A program made the translations under genes and the position numbers. 64,000 nucleotides of DNA from Minisyncoccia bacterium. Its GTDB lineage: Bacteria; Patescibacteriota; Minisyncoccia; Phycocordibacterales; UBA1550. The DNA is taken from contig JBAQCU010000020.1 in assembly GCA_049294435.1 (NCBI GenBank), positions 13,110-77,109 on the forward strand, in the 5' to 3' direction. Positions 4,780 through 64,000 of the stretch are shown in pieces (positions within the stretch are counted from its first letter, which is position 1; every line of letters starts with the position of its first letter). The notes below the pieces were generated by a model that saw only the letters and a list, made by a program, of their open reading frames with translations, was not told the DNA's origin and made no database searches.

Positions 4780-6021
4780 ATGAACAAGCTAATAACAAAA
4801 CTCCCTGACAAACCTGGTGTTTACATATTTCGCGGACCAAAGCGCGAGGTTTTTTATGTTGGAAAGGCGACATCGCTCAAAAGTCGCGTCGCTAGCTATT
4901 TTCGTAAAGACCTAATCGCGACTCGTGGGCCTATTCTAGTTGGGATGGTGGAGTCTGCGAAATCTGTGGATTTTATAGAAACAGATTCTGCCCTTGAGGC
5001 ACTAATTTCAGAAGCGCATCTCATCAAAAAACATCAACCAGTTTATAACACAAAGGAAAAAGATAACAAGAGTTTCAACTACGTGGTTATTACTAAAGAA
5101 GATTTTCCGCGCGTTATTACAATGCGTGGTCGCAACTTGGAAACCCGACATCCAAGTGAAATGCGTGGTCGCAACTTGGAAACCCGACATCCAAGTGAAA
5201 TAAAATATTATTTTGGGCCATTTCCACAAGGAAGCGTCTTGCGCGAAGCGCTAAATATCGTTCGGAAGATTTTTCCGTTTCGCGATAGGTGTAAGCCAGA
5301 GCCAAGTAAGCCGTGCTTCAACGCGCAAATAGGCCTTTGTCCAGGAGTGTGCGCTGGTACAGTATCAAAAGCAGAGTACGCGAAAACAATCCGTCGCATT
5401 AAACTTTTTTTTGAGGGTCACAAAAAAACACTTATCAGTGGGCTTAAACGCGATATGAAGCTATCTGCAAAAAATTTGAAGTTTGAGGAAGCGGGTCATA
5501 TTAAAAAAATGATTTTTGCGCTCAACCACATTCAAGACGTAGCTCTCCTAAAAGCAGAACTTACGAGGTCCGACCTCGTAAGGGATTTTCGCATTGAGGC
5601 TTATGATGTCGCGCATATCTCAGGAACAAATGTTGTTGGTGTAATGGTAGTAATTGAAGACGGCGAACCAAAGAAAAGTGACTACCGAAAATTCAAAATC
5701 AAAAACAGCGCCAATAACGACAATGCATCTTTGCTTGAGATGCTTGAGCGTCGTTTTAACCACCCCGAATGGTCAATGCCAAAACTCATTGTGGTAGATG
5801 GCGGTAAGGCTCAAGTAAACACTGCAGAGCGTGCGCTTAAAGAGTGGGGGATTCAAATCCCTGTAGTAGGTGTTGTAAAAGACGAGCACCATAAGCCAAA
5901 AATGTTGCTAGGTGACAAGACAGCCATCAAAGAACACGATAGGCAGATTCTTCTCGCCAACAACGAAGCCCATCGTTTCGCAGTGAGCTTCCATAGGCAA
6001 CTGAGGAGGAAATCTATTTAA
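4780..6021 (+). CDS. uvrC: Excinuclease ABC subunit C, short form: GIY-YIG, Cys-rich, UVR and RNase H-like endonuclease domains; no C-terminal HhH domain
   Basis: N-terminal GIY-YIG (GVYIFRG..FYVGKA). UVR-like segment (KFEEAGHIKKMIFAL). Endonuclease region (YDVAHISGTNVVG). Only 413 aa. Confidence 0.8.
   Translation: MNKLITKLPDKPGVYIFRGPKREVFYVGKATSLKSRVASYFRKDLIATRGPILVGMVESAKSVDFIETDSALEALISEAHLIKKHQPVYNTKEKDNKSFNYVVITKEDFPRVITMRGRNLETRHPSEMRGRNLETRHPSEIKYYFGPFPQGSVLREALNIVRKIFPFRDRCKPEPSKPCFNAQIGLCPGVCAGTVSKAEYAKTIRRIKLFFEGHKKTLISGLKRDMKLSAKNLKFEEAGHIKKMIFALNHIQDVALLKAELTRSDLVRDFRIEAYDVAHISGTNVVGVMVVIEDGEPKKSDYRKFKIKNSANNDNASLLEMLERRFNHPEWSMPKLIVVDGGKAQVNTAERALKEWGIQIPVVGVVKDEHHKPKMLLGDKTAIKEHDRQILLANNEAHRFAVSFHRQLRRKSI
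5122..5199 (+). repeat. Perfect 39 bp tandem duplication (2 x atgcgtggtcgcaacttggaaacccgacatccaagtgaa) in frame within uvrC; encodes MRGRNLETRHPSE twice
   Basis: Copies at 5122-5160 and 5161-5199 are identical and adjacent. Confidence 0.9.
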
Positions 6022-32165: not shown

Positions 32166-32453
32166 GTTAGTTTTTCATAGTGAGAGAAGCGAGCTTAGTA
32201 AAACTACACCTGGTTAAATGCGATTTTGCAAATCGCGATTTCAAATTCTCTGTTAAACAGCCTGAGAATTTTTTATTATAGTTATGTGATTTTTTCATAA
32301 TAATGTTAATTGTGTTTTTAATTTGAAATCATTTAACTGGGTAAGGAAATTATATAACTTGATACAACATATTCTGCGTTCGCTCGGAAATGCAAACTCC
32401 GTGTTTGTATTTCGCTCGCTCTCTCGCTCTCTTGAATATAGTCGCTTCACTCC
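32166..32453 (-). promoter_or_regulatory. Family 1 structured leader/repeat, copy A (core 32211-32339), filling the ftsW-murG spacer
   Basis: Shares GGTTAAATGCGATTTTGCAAATCGCGATTTCAAATTCTCTGTT at one end and AATTTGAAATCATTTAACTGGG at the other with copies at 63087-63294 and 63655-63872. Strand is given as the sense of the downstream gene. Confidence 0.6.
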
Positions 32454-52755: not shown

Positions 52756-52839
52756 GTTTGTTTTATGTGATTATGTTTGTGGGACTATTAAAATTCGACT
52801 TTCTTTTTCTTTCACTCGAGCCCTGTTAAATGTTACATG

Positions 52840-53478: not shown

Positions 53479-53700
53479 AGTTATTGAAACCTTATCTTAT
53501 CACACTGGGGAAAGTAGTGGAAATTACTATGAATTTTTAGTCTTATTTTTATTTGTTGTTATTTCTGTTGTTTTTAGAACTTTTCTTGCCTCCCCTTTCC
53601 CTTCCCTCATCGCTTTTGTATACGCTAAAACGATAGCCGACTTAGGAGCCTGCAAAACTGCACCCGTCTGAAATTGTTCACCTAGAATAGTTACCATAAG

Positions 53701-53907
53701 TTAGATATTACCATAATTTGCATTTATTTCAATACCGTTTTCTGTTGCGATTTTATCCATAGACTGGGCAGCTGCAACAAGGCTCCTTGCCATCACCTTC
53801 CTGCCTTTAGACATCCTTAGTTTGATATAGCTCAATTTGTCGGTGTCATCCCTTTTCTTATATTCATCTACCTCAATGATCATAGATGTAATTCTACCAC
53901 AGACCAC
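53701..53907 (-). CDS. Hypothetical small protein (68 aa)
   Basis: ORF only; located beside a Family 2 element and the TA remnant. Confidence 0.3.
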   Translation of the reverse strand: MVCGRITSMIIEVDEYKKRDDTDKLSYIKLRMSKGRKVMARSLVAAAQSMDKIATENGIEINANYGNI

Positions 53908-54013
53908 CTATCAAACAACTTCCAACGGCTCAGATGTAGGGAAGTTCTCTCTTATTTTGCTAGCTATACGTCGCTAATGAGCCGTTCAAATTTTAAATCA
54001 AAGGTACCTGACC

Positions 54014-54134
54014 TGCTCTGTAGAAAACATGGTTGTAGTCTTTGCGAGGCACGAAGCAATCTAGGTTTTACGTGTAATTTTATGGATTGCCACGTCGCAA
54101 GCTCCTCGCAAAGACAGTGTTTTCTACGGAGCAT
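54014..54134. repeat. Family 2 nested-palindrome element, copy b: inverted ends TGCTCTGTAGAAAACA / TGTTTTCTACGGAGCAT, flanked by the 8 bp direct repeat ACCTGACC (54006-54013 and 54135-54142)
   Basis: Inner core (GTCTTTGCGAGG..CGAAGCAATCTAGG..GGATTGCCACGTCG..CTCGCAAAGAC) is homologous to copy a; the outer stem differs in sequence but is still complementary. Confidence 0.55.
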
Positions 54135-54190
54135 ACCTGACCTTATATCGCATCAAAGCATGCTCAAAACTTCACAATTAGCTAGAAATC

Positions 54191-54421
54191 CTAAAGTGTT
54201 CTTTTATAGATTTTGTAAATACGACTTCTGTGGTCAACCATTTTGATTGTGATTACCTTGCCAGAAACCTTGTACAAAACGCGATAATCACCGACACGTA
54301 GTTTGTAAACTCCCTTCAAATCATAATGTAAAAGTTCTGGAATTAAACTAGCATAGTATTCAGCATCCACAGCATCAAGATCCGCAACTGCTCTCTCGTC
54401 CTATTTAACGACCAGCGCCAT
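54191..54421 (-). pseudogene. RelE/ParE-family toxin remnant with an in-frame TAG at codon 7 (MALVVK*DERAVADL..YKLRVGDYRVLYKVSGKVITIKMVDHRSRIYKIY)
   Basis: Manual translation of the minus strand. The C-terminal RVGDYRVLY...HRSxIY pattern is typical of RelE/ParE. TAG is used as a stop elsewhere in the window (e.g. uvrB). Confidence 0.6.
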
Positions 54422-54502
54422 ACTTTTCCGCAACACGGTCATGCGAGATGGGTTTAGACCTCACAGCAAGGCGTATTTTTAATCTATTGATAAACGGCTT
54501 AC

Positions 54503-54601
54503 TTAAAGACAAAAAACTAAACTGTCAGGGTCACCGAGTAATTCATTAAGCTTTTTCTCAACGAGAAAATCTATTTTTTTATCGAGTGCTTTTAAGGTCA
54601 T
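54503..54601 (-). CDS. Short antitoxin-like ORF (32 aa, MTLKALDKKIDFLVEKKLNELLGDPDSLVFCL) directly upstream of the RelE remnant
   Basis: Manual translation; below the ORF-track length cutoff. Its position as the upstream partner of a RelE-like gene suggests an antitoxin. It may be truncated. Confidence 0.3.
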   Translation of the reverse strand: MTLKALDKKIDFLVEKKLNELLGDPDSLVFCL

Positions 54602-54656
54602 ATAAAAATATTACCCCAAAAACTGCCAAAAAGCAACAACATCACCCTTCGCCTTA

Positions 54657-55259
54657 TTATTTCATCGCTCGAAGTTTCTTTGTATATTCCTCCCCACAAT
54701 CAGATTCTAATTCTCCGAGAACAAGTTGAATTGACTTATACTGTCCCGTTGGTATTGAAGAAACATACTTGTATTTTTTATACAATGGTTTATAAAACAT
54801 TCTTAGCAAGAAATGAAGTTCCCAGTGCATATCAAATAGTATCCGATTGCGTTTTTCATTTAATATTTTATTTGAACTATAGCTATTTTCTGGACATCTA
54901 ATATGTACAGTAAGAGGCCCCAATTCATTTCTAAACATTCTTACTGCTGCCTGACGGATATTCCCGTTATCGTGTTGTATCAAATAAAACAACCAAGGGA
55001 AAAGAAAGTCTGGCTCAGCTTCCCTATCGTGCAGAAAATATATTACTGACACCGCCATAGCAAAATTCTCCTGTCTCCAATCTTCACTAATAGTCACGTA
55101 TACACGGTCAGCACTATTAATAATTTTCTTCATTTCAATAAACTCTTCTTTTCCGCTTTTTGAACTATACAAAAATTTACGAACACTCCTCGCAGCCTCC
55201 CTGCTGGATTGCCTGTCCCCCTCTAATATAATTTTAAACAAAGCATTAAATGACTGCAT
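54657..55259 (-). CDS. Hypothetical protein (200 aa)
   Basis: ORF with a TATAAT box and a ribosome-binding site upstream. No confident domain. Confidence 0.5.
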   Translation of the reverse strand: MQSFNALFKIILEGDRQSSREAARSVRKFLYSSKSGKEEFIEMKKIINSADRVYVTISEDWRQENFAMAVSVIYFLHDREAEPDFLFPWLFYLIQHDNGNIRQAAVRMFRNELGPLTVHIRCPENSYSSNKILNEKRNRILFDMHWELHFLLRMFYKPLYKKYKYVSSIPTGQYKSIQLVLGELESDCGEEYTKKLRAMK

Positions 55260-55314
55260 AGTTTTGTTTATTTTTTACCTTCTTTCTCCATATATTTCAT
55301 TCTATTATACACTC

Positions 55315-55620
55315 TTATACGGATAAGGCACTAAAATCAACCGTGTCACCGTCAAAAAGAATTGAATGGTCTCTAGGCGGGATGCCGTTGATTGAAAACC
55401 CAATTAAACCTGGCGGATATTTTTCTTCAATCTCCGGGCACTCCATAAAAACATTCATCAGTAAGTACAAAAAAGATGCCCCTTCGCTAATTATTACTGA
55501 GTGCCCCTCATTCCCCGTAATCTTCTGTAGCTCTTTATCGAAGCGGACATTGACACTCATTGCCCTTGGCATACCGTGCATCTCTGATTTTTCATTTGTA
55601 ATCTTTTTCATACATTTCAT
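55315..55620 (-). CDS. Ubiquitin-fold (MoaD/ThiS / Ub-Mut7C-like beta-grasp) small protein, without a C-terminal GG
   Basis: Core MSVNVRFDKEL..GASFLYLL..INGIPPRDHSILFDGDTVDF matches the beta-grasp sulfur-carrier pattern. Begins MKCMKK, as RhuM does. Confidence 0.45.
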   Translation of the reverse strand: MKCMKKITNEKSEMHGMPRAMSVNVRFDKELQKITGNEGHSVIISEGASFLYLLMNVFMECPEIEEKYPPGLIGFSINGIPPRDHSILFDGDTVDFSALSV

Positions 55621-55764
55621 TCTACCCTAAAACATTTTGTGCTCAAAATGTTCGGGCAACCCGTAACTAGCGGGTTTAACCCTAAACTGTCTTCGGCGGT
55701 CGGGCGACACTGCGAAGCAGGGTTTAGCCACAGACCGCACCTCACCAAAATTTTGATCCTCATC
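55621..55764 (-). promoter_or_regulatory. Family 3 leader, copy 1: shares ~90 bp plus the first four codons (ATGAAATGTATG) with the RhuM leader; hairpin AACATTTTG-tgctc-CAAAATGTT (55631-55653) overlaps the AGGG ribosome-binding site; contains a 47 bp internal duplication
   Basis: Aligned directly against 56770-56880. Confidence 0.55.
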
Positions 55765-56784
55765 TCAATGCCCCTTTTCTTTTGTTCCCTTAACTTTTAA
55801 AAGTTTTTTCACCTCCTTGTCAAAGTCTGAAACATAATTTCTGTCTCTCACCTGCCTGTACTTTTCGTATTCCCTAAAAGCCAACGTTTCCGCATCCTTT
55901 GCGCTCACCGTACCCGCAGTATGCAATAGTTTCTTTTCAGAGATTGTCAGAAATTCATCGAGCTTTATAATCCAATCTTGCATTTTCATGAGTCGCCCAC
56001 TAGAAGCCTGCAAATCTGCAAAATCGATGTACAAAGAAACAATCAAGTTGAGCTGACTTATTTCTGACTCAGATAAATAATTTTTTGCAATAGGAATGTC
56101 TCCTGCGGTAATGTAGTCGTTTTTAAAACTAGTTAATCCCATCAGTGGCTTTCTACTATCAGCACGCTTGGCAATTATTTCTGCGGCGGTAGAACCATGC
56201 ACTGCGTAGTGCATTTTATTTTGTACCATGGCAAAAAACTTTTGAGTTTGCTCCGTGTCTACTTTGTAATCGATGCTAGTTGCGTATATATCAGTGACTT
56301 TCTGATAAAACATACGCTCACTACTGCGAATATCTCTAATTCTCTGTAAAAGTTCTTGGAAATATCTTGCACGGCCATCACCCTGCTTTAATCGTTCATC
56401 ATCCATAGTAAATCCCTTAATCAGGTATTCACGCAACCTCTCCGTTGCCCATATGCGAAATTGAGTCCCCTTATCAGACCGCACTCGATACCCAACGGCC
56501 AAAATAGCATCAAGATTATAATGCTTTGTATCATACTCCTTACCATCTGTAGCAGTTATCCGGAAATTCCGGATAACTGAATTTTCATTTAATTCCAGTT
56601 CTAAAAATATATTTTTTAGATGCTCATTAGCCGTACGTACATCAATAACAAAAAGTTCTGCAATTAATTTTTGCGTTAGCCACACATTTTCATCCTCAAT
56701 TCTAACACGAATTTTTTGATCGTCGCCAAGAATTTGATAGATTGCTATTTGTATTTTTTCTGTTTCCTTCTTCATACATTTCAT
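55765..56784 (-). CDS. RhuM-family virulence/Fic-associated protein
   Basis: ENVWLTQKLIAELFVIDVRTANEHLKNIF and GYRVRSDKGTQFRIWATERLREYLIKGF match conserved RhuM-family blocks. Confidence 0.7.
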   Translation of the reverse strand: MKCMKKETEKIQIAIYQILGDDQKIRVRIEDENVWLTQKLIAELFVIDVRTANEHLKNIFLELELNENSVIRNFRITATDGKEYDTKHYNLDAILAVGYRVRSDKGTQFRIWATERLREYLIKGFTMDDERLKQGDGRARYFQELLQRIRDIRSSERMFYQKVTDIYATSIDYKVDTEQTQKFFAMVQNKMHYAVHGSTAAEIIAKRADSRKPLMGLTSFKNDYITAGDIPIAKNYLSESEISQLNLIVSLYIDFADLQASSGRLMKMQDWIIKLDEFLTISEKKLLHTAGTVSAKDAETLAFREYEKYRQVRDRNYVSDFDKEVKKLLKVKGTKEKGH

Positions 56785-56880
56785 TCTACCCTAAAACATT
56801 TTGTGCTCAAAATGTTCGGGCGACCCGCAACTAGCGGGTTTAGCCACAGGCCTCCTCTCATCAAGATTTTAATCTTCATT
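56785..56880 (-). promoter_or_regulatory. Family 3 leader, copy 2 (upstream of RhuM): hairpins CCCGC-tagtt-GCGGG and AACATTTTG-tgctc-CAAAATGTT (56795-56817) immediately before the ribosome-binding site and ATG
   Basis: Aligned directly against 55606-55745. Confidence 0.55.
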
Positions 56881-56952
56881 TTTGTAATTCCATTTTTAGA
56901 ATTTTAGAAACGAGTGGCTGACCCCCATTTTTCCCATTTTTGACCCCCTTTT

Positions 56953-57624
56953 TCAATCGGAAATGTCCGCTTGTTCCTTAAATATTATTTTCTTTCTGTA
57001 TGCCTTACAATAATTAATTGTAGAACAAATTTCCTTGAAAAGTAATTTTGATTCGTTTTCCTCATAATCATACTCCTCCTCAGACTTACCTTGGAATTTA
57101 TAGTGCAAAAAACTGCTCCTTTTTTCAGAAACCTTCTTAATTAAATTAAAATGTTTTCTGTTAAATTTAGGTAACTTCATAACATCAATTAACCAAGTAA
57201 ACTTACCCTCAAAAGAAACATATTTTAATAATTCCTTAAGCGTACTATTAGGAACATCATTTCTAATAGTCCATATTTGAATAATTTCGTTAATGAAGTG
57301 CTCAAAATACGTTGCCAGAAAAACGTATGCAAGGTTAAAATCATCTTCCTTAACAGATTGTTCAAAACTACTCAAAAGGGTATCTTGATGAATAATTACA
57401 AAATGAGAATGTTTACTTTTTGCACGTTGCCTAACCCATTTTCTGATTTTCTCATCTACCAATTTTTTATTAGAAAGATCAGCGACAACAAGAACTCCAC
57501 AAATTATTGCTGACTCAACAAGTTGAGGAAAAATTTCTTTCAACAATTGGTGACCTTCACTATCTACTGCCATTCCCTCTTTATTAGTTTGCTCCTTTAT
57601 CATAGTGCTATAAAATTTCATCAA
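56953..57624 (-). CDS. Hypothetical protein (223 aa), possibly HEPN-like (R-x4-H: EKRSSFLHY); last gene of the restriction-modification operon
   Basis: Overlaps the 3' end of the RM gene by 17 nt. The Rx4-6H motif alone is weak evidence. Confidence 0.4.
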   Translation of the reverse strand: MMKFYSTMIKEQTNKEGMAVDSEGHQLLKEIFPQLVESAIICGVLVVADLSNKKLVDEKIRKWVRQRAKSKHSHFVIIHQDTLLSSFEQSVKEDDFNLAYVFLATYFEHFINEIIQIWTIRNDVPNSTLKELLKYVSFEGKFTWLIDVMKLPKFNRKHFNLIKKVSEKRSSFLHYKFQGKSEEEYDYEENESKLLFKEICSTINYCKAYRKKIIFKEQADISD

Positions 57625-60600
57625 TCTCCCTCATTACATTATCTGTCTCCGTAAGTACCACAATAATCTTTTGATAGTGTTCGATGTCAGCGTTGGTGAG
57701 CGTGCGGGTTTTGCGGTCTTTCAGCCATTTTTGAGCGGGTTGGTATCCACCGATGTAGAAATTCCATGCGACTTCGGGAACATTGCCAAAATACTGGGTA
57801 TCGTTTATGTAGACATTTCCATTTTCATATTTTATTTTTTCCACAGTGTCACTCCCCGCTACAGGGTATGAAGTAATAAGATTGTTGCATTCGGATGCGG
57901 TCATCAAGTGTAGTTCACGGAGCTTAGTACCAAGAGGCACCAGCTTCCAAAATTCTTCCTTATTTTTTGGATATGGTACGCGTGGAAAATCTGTTTTTAA
58001 AAACTCGCTATATTTAGTGCGGTAGCTTGGTGAATATAGGTATGCATAAATATAGTCCAAAATATTTTCAGGAGTAATCCTAATATCACCGTCTTTTGTA
58101 TTATATTCAGCTACAGGATAATACACACTACCGACAGCTTCAGCAATTTTTCTTGAAATTACTAGATCGATGTTTGGAATTCTTGAAACTCTAATATTTC
58201 CCACCTCGCCAGCATGAAAACTACTGCCAACTTCTGGATAAAGATAGAGTGGAAATGATGCCCCGATTTCAGAAGTTTTATTTGAAACATAACTTGATTC
58301 AACGATATTGTCATGGACTAGAACATGTTGAAACCCCTCAATCTTCTGCTGCCTGCACAACATAAGTCCAATATTTTCCTTATTTATCAAATGTTGCATG
58401 ACGTCCCACCGTCCGCGTTCTACAAACTTCTTATCATAATAAATATATCTTGTATCAAATGGTCTATAATTTATCTTACAAACTTTGCCTTCTTCATAGT
58501 CAAAACTTTGATTATTTGCATAAGCAATAATATTTTTCTTGAGCAATTCCTTATCTTCCGAGATAACGATAGCATCTCGCCCTGTTACTATTCCTACGCT
58601 GGAGGTAGTAAATAATTCACTAACAGAAAAACCTTCACTGTATGCGCCCTTATTTTCTCCTTCCAGCTTCCAAACATCACATTCATCTGGCAGTTTCACC
58701 CACATCACTGTTTCTACACTGGCGATATCGAGCATCTGAAACTTGGCATCTCGTGTGCCATACATATCACTAACATGCACAGTCGCGAGCTTTTTATCTC
58801 TAATATTTAGGAACTTTTTAACTGCCAAAATTATAGACACACCTGACATGATATCAAAAACATTTTCATCTTTTGTTCCGTCTGGACTTATTTCCTTTTT
58901 ACGACTATTGCCGTGTAAGTCAACTACATAAATTTTATCGAATGTGTTTCTCAGATGCCAACGCATTCCGCGGAATGTTGGGTTGTCTATATAGCCATGT
59001 GCAGTAATCATCCCAACAATTCCCTCTCCGTTTTTCTCGATGAGACTCTCGGCAAAACGAATAAACTTAACGTAGTCGTCGTTAATCCATTTACTATTTC
59101 GCTCTTTTAATTTTTCTTTGCCCCCAATTTCAACCTTGTAAACATCATTGTCGGTGTAGTGAGGGTTCATTGATTCACCGCTGTACGGCGGATTCCCAAT
59201 CACACACATAATCGGATACTCGGACTTCACACGCGATGCATTTTTGCTTTCCTCGGCAATACTGTCCATAATTCCGAAAAGTGTATCCTGGGTTGAGTAG
59301 TCAATTGGTGCATCAAGGGTGTTGGTGAGATACACACCGAGGCGGGTATTGATATTATCTGCACCGGTATCGTGAAGTGTCATGCCGAGTTTCAAGTGCG
59401 CGATGGTGTACGAAGCCATCATGAGCTCAAAACCATGCAGGCGTGGCAGGAGGTCGTTTTCTACATACGCAGGCCATCTCCCCTCTTGTCCTTTGAAATT
59501 TTCATGAATATGATTAATTACCTCATTGAGAAAAGTACCTGTCCCTGTGGCGACATCGAGTACCTGCACCTTGTGATATTCTTTTTGAACTTTTACCTCC
59601 TTACTTTTGTTGTTGATTTCTTTTTTCTCAATGATAACCTTGGTTGTATCGGTAAGACCTTTTTCAAGACCAAATTCACTTTTTAGCAGACTGTCGACTG
59701 CTCGCACAATAAACTGCACTACTGGTCGCGGTGTATAGAAAACACCCATTTCCATTTTTTTCTTTGAGTCGTACTCCTTCAAAAAATCTTCGTAGAAGTG
59801 AATGACTGGATCCTTGTCGTCTTTTTCTTTTTGATAGAAATCACGCAGTATTTTTTCTACATCGGCGTGAGTAAAAACTTCACAAAGCTCGTCGACAATA
59901 AATCTCAATTTATCAGGAAAGGATGTACCTGCAATGTGGTCAAAAAATGAGCGTAGAAACGGATTAGTTTTAGGAACAAGCTCGCGCGCTTCGGTACGAG
60001 AAAAATCTTCGGGAGTTGTGTCGTTATAACGTGCTGCAAAAAGCCCATACACGAGAGTTTGTGCATACATATCGGCAAAAGATTCATCGTCAAGACCAGA
60101 AACAAGGTGCTCGCGAACCACATTACGCATTTTGAGCAAGTCAGCATATTTGTGCGAAGGATTCGCAAGCATTTCTCGCACATTGCCTCGAATACGCTGA
60201 GCCTTGCCGCCCATAATCTGAGCAAGATGTTTCCCGCGTTTAATAGGCTCCTTGTGAGACGAAGAAAAGTCTACAAGGGTTTTTGGAAGAAGTGAAAAAT
60301 TTTTAGGGAATGCAGTTATTGTGCGATTGGTTTTGTCGAAACTTGCAATAGCAACAGGCTCGCCGTATCTCTCACCATTGCGATAGAAACGAAATTCAAC
60401 GTAGTCAGTAAGCACAAGATTATCATAACCAAAGTAACGCTCCATTTGGTTACTTTTTTCTATTTTGTCGAGGCTGATGCCTATATCTTTTGCTTCAATG
60501 TAGAGAATGGGTACTCCATTTTTCGAAATAACAAAATCGGGCTTATTCCCATCATCATTTGTTGAATCGTGGTTGATTTGTGTTACCTTGCCATCAGCCT

Positions 60601-60727
60601 GAAAAATTTGTTTCAAGAGCAACTCAAAGTCAGTACGATAAATCATCTCTCTTCCGTTTGAAGCATCCAGACGGGCAAATTTTTGTGCGATATTCTTTAA
60701 ATATTCTTCCATAGTAATTATTGACAC
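57608..60727 (-). CDS. Type IIG/IIL restriction-modification enzyme, MmeI-like: N-terminal PD-ExK nuclease, gamma-class N6-adenine methyltransferase, C-terminal target-recognition domain
   Basis: N-terminus DFVISKNGVPILYIEAKD (D..EAK). MTase motif I VLDVATGTGTFL and motif IV IGNPPYSG. 1039 aa in a single chain. Confidence 0.8.
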   Translation of the reverse strand: MSIITMEEYLKNIAQKFARLDASNGREMIYRTDFELLLKQIFQADGKVTQINHDSTNDDGNKPDFVISKNGVPILYIEAKDIGISLDKIEKSNQMERYFGYDNLVLTDYVEFRFYRNGERYGEPVAIASFDKTNRTITAFPKNFSLLPKTLVDFSSSHKEPIKRGKHLAQIMGGKAQRIRGNVREMLANPSHKYADLLKMRNVVREHLVSGLDDESFADMYAQTLVYGLFAARYNDTTPEDFSRTEARELVPKTNPFLRSFFDHIAGTSFPDKLRFIVDELCEVFTHADVEKILRDFYQKEKDDKDPVIHFYEDFLKEYDSKKKMEMGVFYTPRPVVQFIVRAVDSLLKSEFGLEKGLTDTTKVIIEKKEINNKSKEVKVQKEYHKVQVLDVATGTGTFLNEVINHIHENFKGQEGRWPAYVENDLLPRLHGFELMMASYTIAHLKLGMTLHDTGADNINTRLGVYLTNTLDAPIDYSTQDTLFGIMDSIAEESKNASRVKSEYPIMCVIGNPPYSGESMNPHYTDNDVYKVEIGGKEKLKERNSKWINDDYVKFIRFAESLIEKNGEGIVGMITAHGYIDNPTFRGMRWHLRNTFDKIYVVDLHGNSRKKEISPDGTKDENVFDIMSGVSIILAVKKFLNIRDKKLATVHVSDMYGTRDAKFQMLDIASVETVMWVKLPDECDVWKLEGENKGAYSEGFSVSELFTTSSVGIVTGRDAIVISEDKELLKKNIIAYANNQSFDYEEGKVCKINYRPFDTRYIYYDKKFVERGRWDVMQHLINKENIGLMLCRQQKIEGFQHVLVHDNIVESSYVSNKTSEIGASFPLYLYPEVGSSFHAGEVGNIRVSRIPNIDLVISRKIAEAVGSVYYPVAEYNTKDGDIRITPENILDYIYAYLYSPSYRTKYSEFLKTDFPRVPYPKNKEEFWKLVPLGTKLRELHLMTASECNNLITSYPVAGSDTVEKIKYENGNVYINDTQYFGNVPEVAWNFYIGGYQPAQKWLKDRKTRTLTNADIEHYQKIIVVLTETDNVMREIDEIL

Positions 60728-60734
60728 TATAAAT

Positions 60735-61802
60735 TTAAATCCTCACATACCTCGTACCGCGTCCGCGACCGATACGCCTTATTTTCTTGAGTTCAAGGAG
60801 CCTTTCGACTGATTGTCGAACTGTGCTGAGTGCAATGCCTGTTTTTCCTACTATTTCAGCAACACCCGTTTCGTCTACGCTTGAGATGTACTTCCATACC
60901 GCAAACTGTTTTGGGGAAAGCGTATCTTCAATGTGTTCTTCTTTAAGAAATATGAGTGCTTTTGTTGCCTGTTCTTTGACAACACCGAGAAAGAAGTTGA
61001 GCCATGGAGCAATCGTGTCGTGTTCTGTTCCAAATGTCTCTTGTGATTTTATAAGTGCGACATAGTATTCGTCTTTGCGTCGTTCGACGATTTGCTCATG
61101 AGAAACATACTGCACAAACTGGTATTCAGATCGGAGTAAAAGCAAGTTAGTCATAACGCGCGAAAGACGCCCGTTGCCGTCTTCGAATGGGTGAATTTTT
61201 AAAAATTCAACAAGGAAGTTGGCGATTACAAGCAAAGGATGGAACCGTCGGTCTATAAGTGCGTCGTATGTCCAGTCGACAAGCTCGGTCATTTCTCTAG
61301 GAGCGCGCCATGCTGGAGTTGTTTCAAAAATTACTTTTGCTATAGATTTTCCATCAGGCGCAAGTATGCCGACGGTGTTTTCAATTTTTTTGTACTTGCC
61401 TTTGTGGAGTTTATCTTTGTCAGAATATTTGAGAAGCTCGTTGTGTAGCGAGCCAATCACCCCTTCACGGAGTGGAAGCGTCTGATAACTATCAAAGACA
61501 TTTTGAAGCACTTCAAGGTAGCCCTGCACTTCTTGATAGTCGCGCTCGGCAAGCTTCGATGCCGTGAGTCCCTGCATGACTTTCTCCACTTCTTCGTCGG
61601 AGAGTTTTGACCCCTCAATACGGGTCGATGCACCAGCAGAGGTAACAAGCACCGAGCGTTTGAGGCTGGTAATTGCTTGTGGAGTCATCCGTAGCCCACC
61701 TTTGAACTCCCCTCTCATGCCGTCAATTTCAGCAACAAGAGATAGTATATGAGGCGCGGGCGCTTGAAGCCTGTGATCAAATTTTGTCTTATTTTCGTCC
61801 AT
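60735..61802 (-). CDS. Fic-family protein, class II (N-terminal inhibitory helix with S-x3-E-G) and a C-terminal winged HTH
   Basis: Fic motif HPFEDGNGRLSR; inhibitory motif ASTRIEGS; C-terminal LSTVRQSVERLLELKKIRRIGRGRGTRYV. Its stop lies 7 nt before the RM start. Confidence 0.85.
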   Translation of the reverse strand: MDENKTKFDHRLQAPAPHILSLVAEIDGMRGEFKGGLRMTPQAITSLKRSVLVTSAGASTRIEGSKLSDEEVEKVMQGLTASKLAERDYQEVQGYLEVLQNVFDSYQTLPLREGVIGSLHNELLKYSDKDKLHKGKYKKIENTVGILAPDGKSIAKVIFETTPAWRAPREMTELVDWTYDALIDRRFHPLLVIANFLVEFLKIHPFEDGNGRLSRVMTNLLLLRSEYQFVQYVSHEQIVERRKDEYYVALIKSQETFGTEHDTIAPWLNFFLGVVKEQATKALIFLKEEHIEDTLSPKQFAVWKYISSVDETGVAEIVGKTGIALSTVRQSVERLLELKKIRRIGRGRGTRYVRI

Positions 61803-61873
61803 AATTTACCGCTATACTGTATATAGTTGATTATAGCGGATTATGGCGGGAGAAGTCAATAACAATTTTTGTA

Positions 61874-62000
61874 ACCCCTCACACCTATAGAAAAATTCTA
61901 GAAGACCAGAGTCATTGCGAGTAGATAGCGTCCAAGACGTGAACTTGCTAGTTCAGAAACAATCCATGAGTCCTGGATTGCCACGTCGGAGTACCGACTC
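61874..62000. repeat. Family 2 element, copy c (partial or rearranged): left end GTAACCCCTCACACC is identical to copy a; inner core (TCATTGCGAG..CTGGATTGCCACGTCGG..GACTCGCAAAGACGG) is homologous to copy b; no matching right terminal repeat
   Basis: Read from sequence. Confidence 0.45.
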
Positions 62001-62052
62001 GCAAAGACGGAAAACTAGAGTTTCGTAATTCAAAGTTTATGAGATAGAAGAA

Positions 62053-62086
62053 AGAGCGGGATTGCTGAAGGCAATCCCGCTCTTTT
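62053..62086. terminator. Hairpin AGAGCGGGATTGC-tgaag-GCAATCCCGCTCT with TTTT (plus strand) or TTTCTTCT (minus strand); terminator of the rpsI operon and/or the repeat-region transcript
   Basis: 13 bp perfect stem read from sequence. Confidence 0.55.
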
Positions 62087-62224
62087 AATGTGTAAAATGT
62101 TTCGCTTAGGAAACGTTCAAATATTAGGATGGATGCGAGGCGCTAAAAATTTTTTCGACCAAGGTGTACAAGTGTACATTGCGGGAGAAAAAATTTTATA
62201 GCAACAAAGCAGACACCCAATATT

Positions 62225-62740
62225 TTAACGTTTACTCCATTGTGGGGCCTTACGGGCCTTCTTGAGCCCGAACTTTCGTCGCTCTTTCATTCGTGGGTCG
62301 CGCTTGAGGAAGCCGAGCTTCTTGAGACGCTTGCGTGTCTCCTCATCAAATTCTACGAGCGCTCGCGAGAGTCCGTGGCGAATAGCTTCTGCTTGTGAGT
62401 GAATTCCCCCTCCGATTACCTTTGCAGAAATGGTGAACTTACCTACTACCTTTGACTTTTCGATTGCCTCAGCAATAATATTCTGCATATCTGCTGTAGG
62501 AAAATAGGTTGGTACATCCTTACCGTTTACTACCACTGACTCTTTTGTAGCCTCGGTAATACGAACGCGCGCTGTTGAAGTCTTGCGACGACCAACAGCC
62601 TCAATATATCTTCCGAGAGCAGTTTTAGTAGTCGCTTTTTTTACCGTAGCCTTTTCCTCCGTGGTTTTACTTAGAGTAGGCGCTTTTTTTACAGCCTTAA
62701 ATTTGACTTCTTTTTCTATTGTAGTATCTTTGGTCGTCAT
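62225..62740 (-). CDS. rpsI: 30S ribosomal protein S9 with a ~40 aa Lys/Thr-rich N-terminal extension
   Basis: C-terminus ..GGGIHSQAEAIRHGLSRAL..RDPRMKERRKFGLKKARKAPQWSKR is canonical S9. Confidence 0.9.
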   Translation of the reverse strand: MTTKDTTIEKEVKFKAVKKAPTLSKTTEEKATVKKATTKTALGRYIEAVGRRKTSTARVRITEATKESVVVNGKDVPTYFPTADMQNIIAEAIEKSKVVGKFTISAKVIGGGIHSQAEAIRHGLSRALVEFDEETRKRLKKLGFLKRDPRMKERRKFGLKKARKAPQWSKR

Positions 62741-62741
62741 A

Positions 62742-63086
62742 TTATTCAGTAATTTTTAAATTCTTCATTCGCACTTTATGCAAACGGTTGCGGGGAATCA
62801 TGCGTGAAATTGCGCGGAGGAAAACTTCAGCGTAACCCTTTTTCTCGATGGTGTACCCAACGGTACGCTCACGAAGTCCGCCTGGGTAGCCAGAGTATGT
62901 CTTTGAGTGCACCTCTCCCATCTTTGATGGAGCGATGGTTGCCTTTGAGGCATTTAGAACAATCACTTCTACTGGAGCTACGAGGTGCTTCTGGAATGCG
63001 ACCGAGTTTTTACCCATAAGAACGCTGGCTGCCTCTGTGGCAACACGTCCTACGGATTTTCCTTTTGCGTCAATTTTGTATGTCAT
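62742..63086 (-). CDS. rplM: 50S ribosomal protein L13
   Basis: MTYKIDAKGKSVGRVATEAA.. The ORF track's MEIFKIS.. extension comes from the upstream repeat; the real start is the ATG at 63086. Confidence 0.85.
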   Translation of the reverse strand: MTYKIDAKGKSVGRVATEAASVLMGKNSVAFQKHLVAPVEVIVLNASKATIAPSKMGEVHSKTYSGYPGGLRERTVGYTIEKKGYAEVFLRAISRMIPRNRLHKVRMKNLKITE

Positions 63087-63294
63087 GGTAGATCTTCTTA
63101 GCGAGCAAAGCGAGATTTTGAAAATCTCCACCCGGTTAAATGCGATTTTGTAAATCGCGATTTCAAATTCTCTGTTGAATAATCAGCAGAGGATTTATTA
63201 TCATTACGTGATGCTAACATAAAGTGTGTCATATTACTAATTTGAAATCATTTAACTGGGTTTGAAAATTATAGTCGCTTCCCTCCTTAATTTT
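63087..63294 (-). promoter_or_regulatory. Family 1 structured leader/repeat, copy B (core 63134-63259) between rplQ and rplM
   Basis: Contains, in gene sense: a TATAAT box right after the rplQ stop; the long-range inverted repeat CCCAGTTAAATGATTTCAAATT ... AATTTGAAATC[GCGATTTACAAAATCGC]ATTTAACCGGG; and the palindrome GAGATTTTCAAAATCTC before the ATG. Confidence 0.6.
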
Positions 63295-63654
63295 CTAAAC
63301 GAACTCAATAACCGCCATTTTAGAAGCATCTCCGCCACGACGTGGTAGCTTCACAATACGTGTATAGCCACCGGCGCGCTCTTTGTAGCGAGGCGCAATT
63401 TCATCAATAAGCTTCTTTGCACCTTCCTCTCCAGAGACACCGCCAAGTCGTGAAATAATAAGACGACGTGAAGCAAGGTCTGCTTTGCCACCACGTGTAA
63501 CCAATTTCTCCACGAATGGTCGGAGTTCTTTGGCACGAGCTTCTGTAGTCTCTATATGCTCAGTTTTAATAAGAGAAAGCGCAAGAGAACGTAGAAGCGC
63601 AATGCGTCCTGCGTGATCTCGTCCGAATTTTCGAATTGACTTGTGGTGTTTCAT
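63295..63654 (-). CDS. rplQ: 50S ribosomal protein L17
   Basis: MKHHKSIRKFGRDHAGRIALLRSLA.. is canonical L17. Start at 63654; the ORF-track extension to 63699 is repeat-derived. Confidence 0.9.
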   Translation of the reverse strand: MKHHKSIRKFGRDHAGRIALLRSLALSLIKTEHIETTEARAKELRPFVEKLVTRGGKADLASRRLIISRLGGVSGEEGAKKLIDEIAPRYKERAGGYTRIVKLPRRGGDASKMAVIEFV

Positions 63655-63872
63655 GGTTGATTTTCTTAGCGAGTGAAACGAGATTTTGAAAATCTCCACC
63701 CGGTTAAATGCGATTTTGTAAATCGCGATTTCAAATTCTCTGTTGCATAATTTACGGGGAATTTATAATCGTTGTGTGATACTAGCATAAAGTGTGTCAT
63801 ATTGCCAATTTGAAATCATTTAACTGGGTTCTCAAAAAATACATTAGCTATACTCATTATTTTTTGGAATAA
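63655..63872 (-). promoter_or_regulatory. Family 1 structured leader/repeat, copy C (core 63702-63827) between rpoA and rplQ
   Basis: About 90% identical to copy B over the conserved arms; the central ~65 bp is homologous but more diverged. Confidence 0.6.
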
Positions 63873-64000
63873 TTATGCCTTGAGAGTGATATCGTGGGCA
63901 CCGAGCGCACGCTTGATTTCCTGAATACCTTTATCGCCCAAACCGTCGATTTCCAAGAGGTCTTCTTCAGTCTTGCGAGCAAGTCCACCTATTGTGCGAA
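63873..64000 (-). CDS. rpoA: DNA-directed RNA polymerase alpha subunit, C-terminal domain only; 5' end lies outside the window
   Basis: Minus-strand translation ..LLEIDGLGDKGIQEIKRALGAHDITLKA* is a typical alpha-CTD HhH. Stop at 63873-63875. Confidence 0.8.
   Translation of the reverse strand, partial: RTIGGLARKTEEDLLEIDGLGDKGIQEIKRALGAHDITLKA

Follow-up and report, generated by a model that had tools for sequence, protein, structure and literature searches.

We analysed a 64,000-nt stretch of DNA (the window, below) from a Minisyncoccia bacterium (GenBank assembly GCA_049294435.1, contig JBAQCU010000020.1, positions 13,110 to 77,109 of the forward strand), which is a Yonathbacteria-related Parcubacteria metagenome-assembled genome (MAG). 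Three of its intergenic spacers are filled by copies of a single repeat. This repeat is a non-coding element made of nested palindromes and is probably insertional, similar to a miniature inverted-repeat transposable element (MITE) or to the paired repetitive extragenic palindromic (REP) sequences known as REPINs; it is confined to a few ultra-small, Yonathbacteria-related Parcubacteria from groundwater and is not an ancient regulatory leader of ribosomal protein (r-protein) genes.

The minus strand of the window codes for the end of rpoA followed by rplQ, rplM and rpsI and, about 31 kb away and in the same direction, for mraY, ftsW and murG. The three copies, called A, B and C here (Table 1), all lie on the gene strand, and their homology is evident from a repeat finder and from a MAFFT alignment. 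Over 196 nt, B and C share 86% identity; A is 75-78% identical to either. A 22-nt arm (CCCAGTTAAATGATTTCAAATT) and a 31-nt core (GAAATCGCGATTTRCAAAATCGCATTTAACC) each occur exactly three times, always on the gene strand, against about 0.01 and 0 occurrences, respectively, expected by chance. The first-pass annotation of this DNA had proposed three such elements in the same orientation and at the same distance from the start codon, and on this it was right: 44, 44 and 43 nt separate the end of the conserved hairpin from the ATG. The distal arm interrupted by a GCGATTT-N3-AAATCGC hairpin, the palindrome AAATCGCGATTT, a second palindrome forming the GAGATTTTCAAAATCTC hairpin in copies B and C, and an extra insertion of about 85 nt in copy A are likewise all present. 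However, the element had been drawn too short, as homology among the copies runs from just past the upstream stop codon up to the ATG itself and includes an outer inverted repeat. The shared MEIFKIS N-termini had been taken for artefacts of the repeat, which is confirmed; across all copies that we collected, 82 to 288 nt in length, such artefactual N-terminal extensions are the only open reading frames (ORFs).

The closest relatives lack the element at most of these junctions, where their spacers are 1-26 nt long. For the rpoA-rplQ-rplM region we took six relatives picked through homologues of protein L13 (loci L020-L023, L029 and L030), and for the ftsW-murG junction five picked through homologues of MurG (L024-L028), including the window's nearest, at 77-83% identity. 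The rpoA-rplQ spacer measures 20-25 nt in L003, L020-L023 and L029 (22 nt in L029), the rplQ-rplM spacer 23-26 nt in L021-L023, and the ftsW-murG spacer 1-7 nt in L024-L028. A covariance model (R1), built from the extracted copies and then run against all loci, found no copy in about 160 kb of sequence from relatives, including L020-L023 and the ftsW-murG junctions of L024-L028. In the Candidatus Yonathbacteria MAG PCUO01 the rplM copy is present and the rpoA-rplQ spacer is empty. The copies are dispersed and polymorphic for presence and absence at orthologous sites, as those of a MITE are, and we did not find the orthologous conservation within one gene family that marks a gene-specific cis-regulatory leader. 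At the rplQ-rplM junction, L020 and L029 carry an unrelated insert of 57-72 nt. These inserts before rplM (L020 9929-10000 and L029 976-1032), together with one before dnaK (L020 11524-11638), represent a different repeat, …TCGGACATAAA.AATTA.TAAAT…, and it may be that this clade generally harbours repeat families close to start codons.

The ftsW-murG junction allows the filled and the empty site to be compared directly. In L026-L028 the empty site reads ...AAGAAAAACTAAC and then ATG, and in L028 TATTTCTAAGAAAAACTAAC is followed at once by ATGAAAATCG, which starts at the ATG. The filled site of the window reads TATTTCTAAGAGAAATTAAG, GAGTGAAGCGAC...CTCTCAC, TATGAAAAACTAAC and then the same ATGAAAATCG. 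The insert, whose terminal inverted repeats are the outer inverted repeat P0 described below, is bracketed by an 11-nt direct repeat identical to the empty site; the flanks of the murG copy (GAGAAATTAAG and GAAAAACTAAC) are the empty-site sequence of L026-L028. The last codons and the stop of ftsW lie within the left repeat, and the right repeat restores the native pre-ATG context. It should be noted that the left and right flanks are no more similar within copies (6.75 of 12 positions) than between copies (6.68 of 12; p = 0.42), and that identical 19-nt tails stand before different genes in different genomes, so these flanks do not look like ordinary, copy-specific target duplications. They may instead belong to the element itself, or represent an att-like core common to it and the sites it has entered.

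The three genomes that bear the element at murG are spread over three clades of a neighbour-joining MurG tree, and each clade also has sisters without it. Either the murG copies were gained several times, or there was a single old gain and then several precise losses. Such losses could occur by slippage between the direct repeats, which would recreate the empty site exactly. Subfamily features shared by the 5' parts of the three murG copies favour an old insertion, and recombination between copies is suggested by the chimeric 3' part of the PCUO01 murG copy. In either case the history is one of an unstable insertion and not of a conserved essential leader.

The same element precedes a wide range of genes elsewhere. 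When one genome per species was scanned for the pattern, only PCUO01 and the Paceibacterota MAG JAVHQE01 contained the core, and the window DNA is about 70-80% identical to both; a metagenome scan added 14 loci, and pattern scans of viral contigs gave no match. The search for further copies in related genomes that had been proposed at the outset was therefore productive: pattern scans and R1 together place the family at 19 distinct sites in PCUO01, JAVHQE01, several metagenome contigs and the window. Extra matches to GAGCGAAGCGA in these loci stand in unrelated contexts. The genes that follow the element are murG (in three genomes), rplM (in two), rplQ, rbfA, rpsN, rpsS, rplV, rplN, rpsJ, rpsR, rpsD, rpoB, rpoC, dnaK, gap and a Mur ligase, which makes more than 14 unrelated genes, all of them housekeeping or highly expressed.

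At 19 of 19 sites the element lies in gene sense and abuts the ATG, with 42-48 nt between the end of the conserved core and the start codon in every copy. About two thirds of the copies occupy stop-start junctions inside operons; those before rpoB and gap, and probably also those before rpsN and rpsS, stand at the head of a transcription unit, which makes the start codon, and not the upstream stop codon, the anchor. The non-randomness of orientation and spacing is thus established well beyond the window. The first-pass annotation had read this identical placement as a sign of a shared regulatory role, but insertion or recombination at an A-rich motif before the ATG, together with selection against disruptive insertions, explains it better. 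Its secondary suggestion of a MITE origin fits an insertional reading. Random orientation relative to genes, which it had expected of a plain MITE, is not what we see, and the orientation lock is real and unusual.

The element is modular, with one palindrome set inside another. Its outer part, which we call the frame, begins with an A-rich 5' flank (ATAAGATAAC or AGAAAATTAAG), continues with the outer inverted repeat P0 (consensus GAGCGAAGCGAC ... GTCGCTTCGCTC) and ends in an A-rich tail (TTTAAAAATCAACC or similar) directly against the ATG, so that versions of the native pre-ATG motif, approximately AGAAAAYYAAC, flank it on both sides. In the rpsS copy all 12 positions of P0 pair, and in window copies A and B 10 of 11 do; the spacing of its half-sites ranges from about 25 to more than 250 nt across copies. 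PCUO01 has, between rpsK and rpsD, a frame of 77 nt with nothing inside it. In the minimal form, found before rpsS, the frame is centred on a perfect 39-nt palindrome, CCCAGTTAAAT-GCGATTT-N3-AAATCGC-ATTTAACTGGG, which consists of the modules P1 and P3; written as a hairpin (CCCAGTTAAATGCGATTT-N3-AAATCGCATTTAACTGGG), it is a conserved repeated palindrome in the 20-40-nt range. Two near-identical contigs that carry this minimal copy (L007 9281-9319 and L010 7059-7097) differ only by an inversion of the 3-nt loop, GAA against TTC, which is a DNA-level palindrome event.

A further module, P2 (GATTTCAAATT-loop-AATTTGAAATC), sits between P1 and P3. In long copies, the three of the window among them, about 70 further nt lie inside P2 and, though strongly diverged, keep TTATGnTAAAATCA; an extended -10-like box, TGnTAAAAT, is retained in 11 of 11 long copies while the surrounding interior diverges. 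The inner modules can be exchanged. Between tuf and rpsJ the same frame encloses an unrelated, perfect 22-bp hairpin, and before rpoB P1 is retained with P2 and P3 swapped for other hairpins. Secondary insertions, different in sequence and position, are nested in copy A and in the PCUO01 murG copy (L004). In being small (under about 300 nt), non-coding and bounded by terminal inverted repeats, the element again resembles a MITE.

The start region that the element brings is of the kind native to the clade, whose operon-internal spacers (1-26 nt) are A-, C- and T-rich and lack a Shine-Dalgarno sequence. The absence of a Shine-Dalgarno sequence from the three window copies, pointed out at first sight, is true but not particular to these genes, as most genes of this genome are without one. 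A split Shine-Dalgarno sequence, with AAGGAGG of the 5' end folded near the AUG, was considered and set aside, since GGAGG is present only in some copies and the genome mostly does not use such sites. The tail CACTCTTTAAAAA, which bears some resemblance to a boxA/Nus antitermination signal, overlaps a P0 arm.

Promoter-like signals are less easily judged. A TATAAT box directly after the upstream stop codon had been reported for all three copies; it is clear in B, is split by the secondary insertion in A and is absent from C. A promoter scan lists TAGAAA-18-TATAAT in copy B and TTGGCA-18-TG-TAGTAT in copy C, but promoter-like matches in the region are no commoner than in shuffled sequence (5 versus 2.2 ± 1.5). 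A promoter-like box may be involved, as the first-pass annotation had suggested. In many genes of the window a TATAAT-like box stands no more than 5-25 nt upstream of the ATG, a spacing that suggests very short or absent leaders. As a reference for a native promoter of the clade, the rpsD-rpoA spacer of L020-L023 carries a conserved promoter-like TTTGCAT-N17-TATAGT and a leader of about 23 nt (…TAATTTACACCACA-ATG).

Folded as RNA, six short or minimal copies are predicted to form the same rod, from P0 through P1 to a three-way junction with P2 and P3 (z-scores -4.8 to -10), with 15-19 nt before the AUG unpaired. Copy B is predicted to form a rod and three-way junction as well (z -5.5), leaving about 10-11 nt before the AUG unpaired. 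The opposite strand of copy B folds equally well (z -5.5), as is expected of palindromic DNA, and folding energy therefore could not be used to assign the strand.

The covariation check called for by the first-pass annotation was made on an alignment (A2) of 16 distinct copies, with the long P2 interiors trimmed and the two secondary insertions spliced out by hand. In A2, 87.6% of cells are paired, and the covariation score lies above all 500 shuffles and all slid controls, with changes on both sides in P2 (three pairs) and in P0. The seven inner pairs of P1 and six of the seven pairs of P3 never vary across copies, which is partly ascertainment, since P3 and the P1 3' arm served as search patterns. 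On the sense strand, G-U pairs outnumber A-C mismatches by 49 to 17 cells; counted by column, the excess is a weak 19 to 11. Pairing is maintained, and this fits an RNA structure and a single-stranded DNA hairpin recognised by a recombinase alike.

How might such an element spread and persist in essential operons? The element would enter at the pre-ATG motif, by transposition or recombination specific for target and strand, and could be lost by slippage or deletion between the flanking direct repeats. A shared target or att-like core would explain why the distance to the ATG is fixed, and given a strand-specific enzyme it would explain the orientation lock too; selection against insertions that harm a coding sequence or a start region would reinforce both placement and orientation. 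The insert might be tolerated in essential operons by folding on itself into the rod and three-way junction, while the downstream gene would regain an unpaired, Shine-Dalgarno-less start region of the native kind. Long copies may in addition supply an internal promoter (TGnTAAAAT, or in copy B the TAGAAA-N18-TATAAT of the frame), and the long stem may serve as an RNase III-type processing or stability site.

Several observations weigh against an insertional origin. The arms of P1, P2 and P3 are near-invariant across genomes whose proteins are about 71-78% identical, and whose P2 interiors have diverged. The retention of the -10-like box in every long copy is a sign of constraint and could mean a host function; the sense-strand excess of G-U pairs (49 versus 17 cells, 19 versus 11 by column) and a covariation score reached by none of the 500 shuffles point the same way. 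No transposase or recombinase is linked to the element, and neither 373 kb of loci nor viral contigs yielded an autonomous partner sharing its ends. The flanking repeat may not be a classical target-site duplication, given the lack of copy-specific similarity (p = 0.42) and the shared tails. Moreover, the three murG copies may represent one old insertion followed by several losses, and all counts rest on fragments of each genome.

The strongest alternative is that the repeat has become a domesticated expression cassette, that is, a portable internal promoter with a structured 5' leader whose stem is processed, for example by RNase III, or stabilises the downstream cistron, and which uncouples highly expressed genes from their operons. 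We consider this possible but clearly the lesser option. The box that persists in all long copies amid a diverging P2 interior and the two promoter-like sequences listed by the scan would suit it, as would the housekeeping or highly expressed host genes with every copy in sense, the stems conserved in diverged genomes with compensatory changes and a sense-strand G-U excess, and a rod-like fold that keeps the start region free. There is also a precedent in the Correia elements, MITEs that supply promoters and RNase III sites (PMC2649163). However, the promoter-like matches are within the range of shuffled sequence, short and minimal copies lacking the P2 box occupy the same places, the closest relatives do with the very short spacers described above at most of these junctions, the distribution is patchy, and both strands fold equally well.

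A bolder proposal takes the element for a hitherto undescribed class of strand- and target-specific hairpin elements that home to the Shine-Dalgarno-less initiation motif directly before start codons and bring their own start region and, in the long forms, a promoter. It would have been co-opted as a portable expression cassette of streamlined bacteria of the Candidate Phyla Radiation (CPR), where it uncouples and boosts essential genes (those for ribosomal proteins, RNA polymerase, DnaK, glyceraldehyde-3-phosphate dehydrogenase (GAPDH) and MurG), with the P1/P3 hairpin as the site for a single-stranded DNA recombinase or an RNA-binding factor. We offer this as speculation that is, on present evidence, unlikely to hold in full.

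It is improbable that the palindromes act as double-stranded DNA, as an operator or architectural site, with AAATCGCGATTT and the 39-bp P1+P3 palindrome as the targets of a dimeric regulator or a nucleoid protein co-ordinating growth-related genes. They are perfect, invariant in sequence across genomes and found upstream of many growth-related genes, but the outer half-sites vary in spacing (~25 to >250 nt), the inner palindrome can be replaced by unrelated hairpins with the frame kept, compensatory changes preserve pairing and not sequence, the sites are missing from relatives, and a symmetric site offers no reason for an orientation lock. Most improbable of all is a gene-specific regulatory RNA (an r-protein autoregulatory leader, attenuator or riboswitch) for rplQ, rplM and murG, of which the first-pass annotation had listed the attenuator and the r-protein autoregulatory site among its candidates: a structured leader with some covariation does precede two r-protein genes, but the same element stands before dnaK, gap, rbfA, rpoB/C and Mur ligases, it is missing where the nearest relatives have the orthologous junctions, no terminator follows the structure, and unrelated sequences can replace its inner hairpins. 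Nor did the Rfam comparison then recommended yield a family, even at permissive thresholds: there were 0 matches at gathering thresholds in the whole window, and an E-value scan of 63040-63900 gave only chance matches to snoRNAs and miRNAs. No tRNA or tmRNA was found near the copies.

An attC site of an integron was also considered and rejected. Such sites have the core order RYYYAAC ... GTTRRRY, a cassette context and a nearby intI gene. P1, GTTAAAT...ATTTAAC, has the reverse core order on either strand and lies in housekeeping operons, and no integrase was found in the region of the window examined.

The insertional reading can be set beside several known systems, of which bacterial MITEs resident in transcribed intergenic DNA and hairpin repeats moved by Y1 transposases come closest. 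The Correia elements of Neisseria (Correia repeat enclosed elements, CREE, or Neisseria miniature insertion sequences, NEMIS) are likewise non-coding, about 100-160 nt long, multi-copy and intergenic, have terminal inverted repeats, are often co-transcribed and show presence/absence polymorphism between strains; promoters can arise at their ends, and RNase III acts on their RNA hairpin (PMC2649163). They differ in occurring in both orientations and in hundreds of copies, in duplicating a TA target and in having a site for integration host factor, whereas the element described here is locked in orientation, sits directly against the ATG and is built of nested modules, shares no sequence similarity with them, and has only putative promoter and RNase III activity. 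Enterobacterial repetitive intergenic consensus (ERIC) sequences, or intergenic repeat units (IRU), and the Chunjie MITE of Geobacter are also imperfect palindromes in transcribed intergenic regions of operons. ERIC sequences have shorter and longer variants that arise by internal deletions and by insertions at fixed internal sites. These families belong to other phyla and have other sequences, and neither strict sense orientation nor start-codon anchoring has been described for them. Chunjie is reported to have inserted into an operon and left it undisturbed (cited in PMC10969869).

REP sequences and REPINs with their REP-associated tyrosine transposases (RAYTs, of the Y1/HUH type; PMC3116915 for REPIN biology) and the palindromes derived from the insertion sequences IS200/IS605 share with our element short conserved hairpins that persist in a lineage and compensatory changes that keep the hairpin. 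These systems recognise single-stranded DNA in a strand-specific manner, and such recognition could account for an orientation lock. Elements derived from IS200/IS605 insert strand-specifically beside a short target, have subterminal hairpins and make no target-site duplication; our copies show the orientation lock and hairpins, and both of their flanks end in YAAC-like motifs. On the other hand, REPs are usually numerous, occur in either orientation and lie downstream of genes, and our element has an extra outer frame and tail. No Y1_Tnp gene adjoins any copy in the available loci, which are not whole genomes, so that absence is not proven. A Parcubacteria contig (L021) encodes two RAYT-like Y1 transposases of 224 aa (PF01797; 1260-1934 and 15988-16662, 77% identical in DNA), each flanked by inverted REP-like units (GAAAGGGGGTCAGGTACCC) in a REPtron-like arrangement. 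These units are unrelated in sequence to our element; the pair with its own REPs indicates that such systems exist in the clade, and none is linked to the element's hairpin.

Putative mobile promoters, described as promoter propagation (PMC3488235), also place highly similar upstream regions before non-homologous genes within and between genomes, but our element fills the whole stop-to-start spacer, is palindromic, lies mostly inside operons and has a promoter activity that is only inferred. The intercistronic RNase III sites of phage T7 are repeated hairpins between cistrons, in the same orientation and near the downstream start, but they are about 50-60 nt long, not mobile and without flanking direct repeats, and the analogy is one of possible RNA-level function only. 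The element is set apart from all these systems by its strict sense orientation, by its anchoring at the start codon with an element-borne start region and by its nested modular build.

Table 1. Copies of the repeat and their parts in the window (positions of the 64,000-nt stretch).
Feature	Position	Strand	Remarks
Copy A	32166..32453	-	Whole ftsW(stop)-murG(ATG) spacer, 288 nt; long form with a secondary nested insertion; covariance model R1, 80 bits
Copy A, extended -10-like box TGAAAAAAT inside P2	32289..32297	-	From the long-P2 alignment
Copy A, secondary insertion of ~85 nt with its own hairpin	32352..32436	-	Approximate boundaries; nested in the 5' part; missing from the L001 murG copy
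Probable degenerate relic, grpE-dnaK spacer (tentative)	52756..52839	-	P1 3' arm CATTTAACAGGG at 52821-52831 and frame-like ATTTTAATAGTC; undetected by the covariance model
Copy B	63087..63294	-	Whole rplQ(stop)-rplM(ATG) spacer, 208 nt; long form; R1, 130.8 bits
Copy B, 3' tail	63087..63130	-	GAGATTTTCAAAATCTC hairpin at 63112-63128, P0 3' arm, A-rich start region TAAGAAGATCTACC, then ATG
Copy B, P0 3' arm TCGCTTTGCTC (outer inverted repeat)	63103..63113	-	Partner of 63274-63285
Copy B, P1 3' arm ATTTAACCGGG	63131..63141	-	From the alignment of copies
Copy B, P3 hairpin GCGATTT-ACA-AAATCGC	63142..63158	-	From the alignment of copies
Copy B, P2 module, arms GATTTCAAATT and AATTTGAAATC around ~70 variable nt	63159..63249	-	Compensatory changes in the arms
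Copy B, extended -10-like box TGTTAGCAT inside P2	63211-63219	-	Long-P2 alignment conserves TTATGnTAAAATCA
Copy B, P1 5' arm CCCAGTTAAAT	63250..63260	-	Seven inner bp, GTTAAAT/ATTTAAC, invariant in 16/16 aligned copies
Copy B, TATAAT box in the frame	63268..63273	-	TAGAAA 18 nt upstream; 10/12 matches to the promoter consensus, not above shuffled expectation
Copy B, P0 5' arm GAGGGAAGCGAC (outer inverted repeat; acts as terminal inverted repeat of the frame)	63274..63285	-	Pairs 10/11 with 63103-63113
Copy C	63655..63872	-	Whole rpoA(stop)-rplQ(ATG) spacer, 218 nt; long form; R1, 111 bits
Copy C, extended -10-like box TGCTAGTAT inside P2	63779..63787	-	TTGGCA 18 nt upstream; conserved across long copies

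The window has other features of interest. A second repeat family is represented on the minus strand at 61900-62020, between a Fic gene and the rpsI terminator, and is 77-91% identical to L001 7276-7318 and L005 759-923; its core, CGTGAACTTGCTAGTTCAGAA, is the secondary insertion nested in the PCUO01 murG copy (L004). A clear intrinsic terminator follows rpsI at about 62050-62090. The rpsI product (62225-62740) has 171 aa, as opposed to 151-157 aa in relatives, with an N-terminal extension rich in Lys, Thr and Ala. Between rpsI and grpE-dnaK-dnaJ, which are directly adjacent in relatives, lies an island of about 8.7 kb (53479-62224) that encodes a Fic-domain protein, a 1039-aa type ISP restriction-modification enzyme, a RhuM-family protein and small ORFs. 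This island contains a 92-nt direct repeat (55590-55681 and 56754-56845, 89% identical) with the hairpin GGGCAACCCGTAACTAGCGGGTT, upstream of two neighbouring genes, and a further repeat pair at 55720-55763 and 56836-56879. Finally, a 39-nt unit, AATGCGTGGTCGCAACTTGGAAACCCGACATCCAAGTGA, is perfectly duplicated in tandem at 5121-5198, within an ORF at 4780-6021.

The genomes of CPR bacteria, or Patescibacteria, are very small and are usually called repeat-poor. We found no account of this repeat from CPR genomes in our searches of the literature, and a 2024 review of MITEs does not mention these bacteria. The data presented here indicate that a palindromic repeat family has colonised the stop-start junctions of ribosomal-protein, rpoBC, dcw and dnaK operons in an orientation-locked and start-anchored manner. 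For annotation, this means that a repeat can yield false N-terminal extensions and mimic a conserved leader. For translation, an element that recreates the native A-rich start region bears on how initiation proceeds without Shine-Dalgarno sequences. For the study of mobile elements, it points to an insertion mechanism of unusual target and strand specificity, with nested modules and loop flips as instances of palindrome dynamics. If the -10-like box is indeed active, the family would also represent a natural case of promoter and 5' untranslated region propagation inside essential operons.

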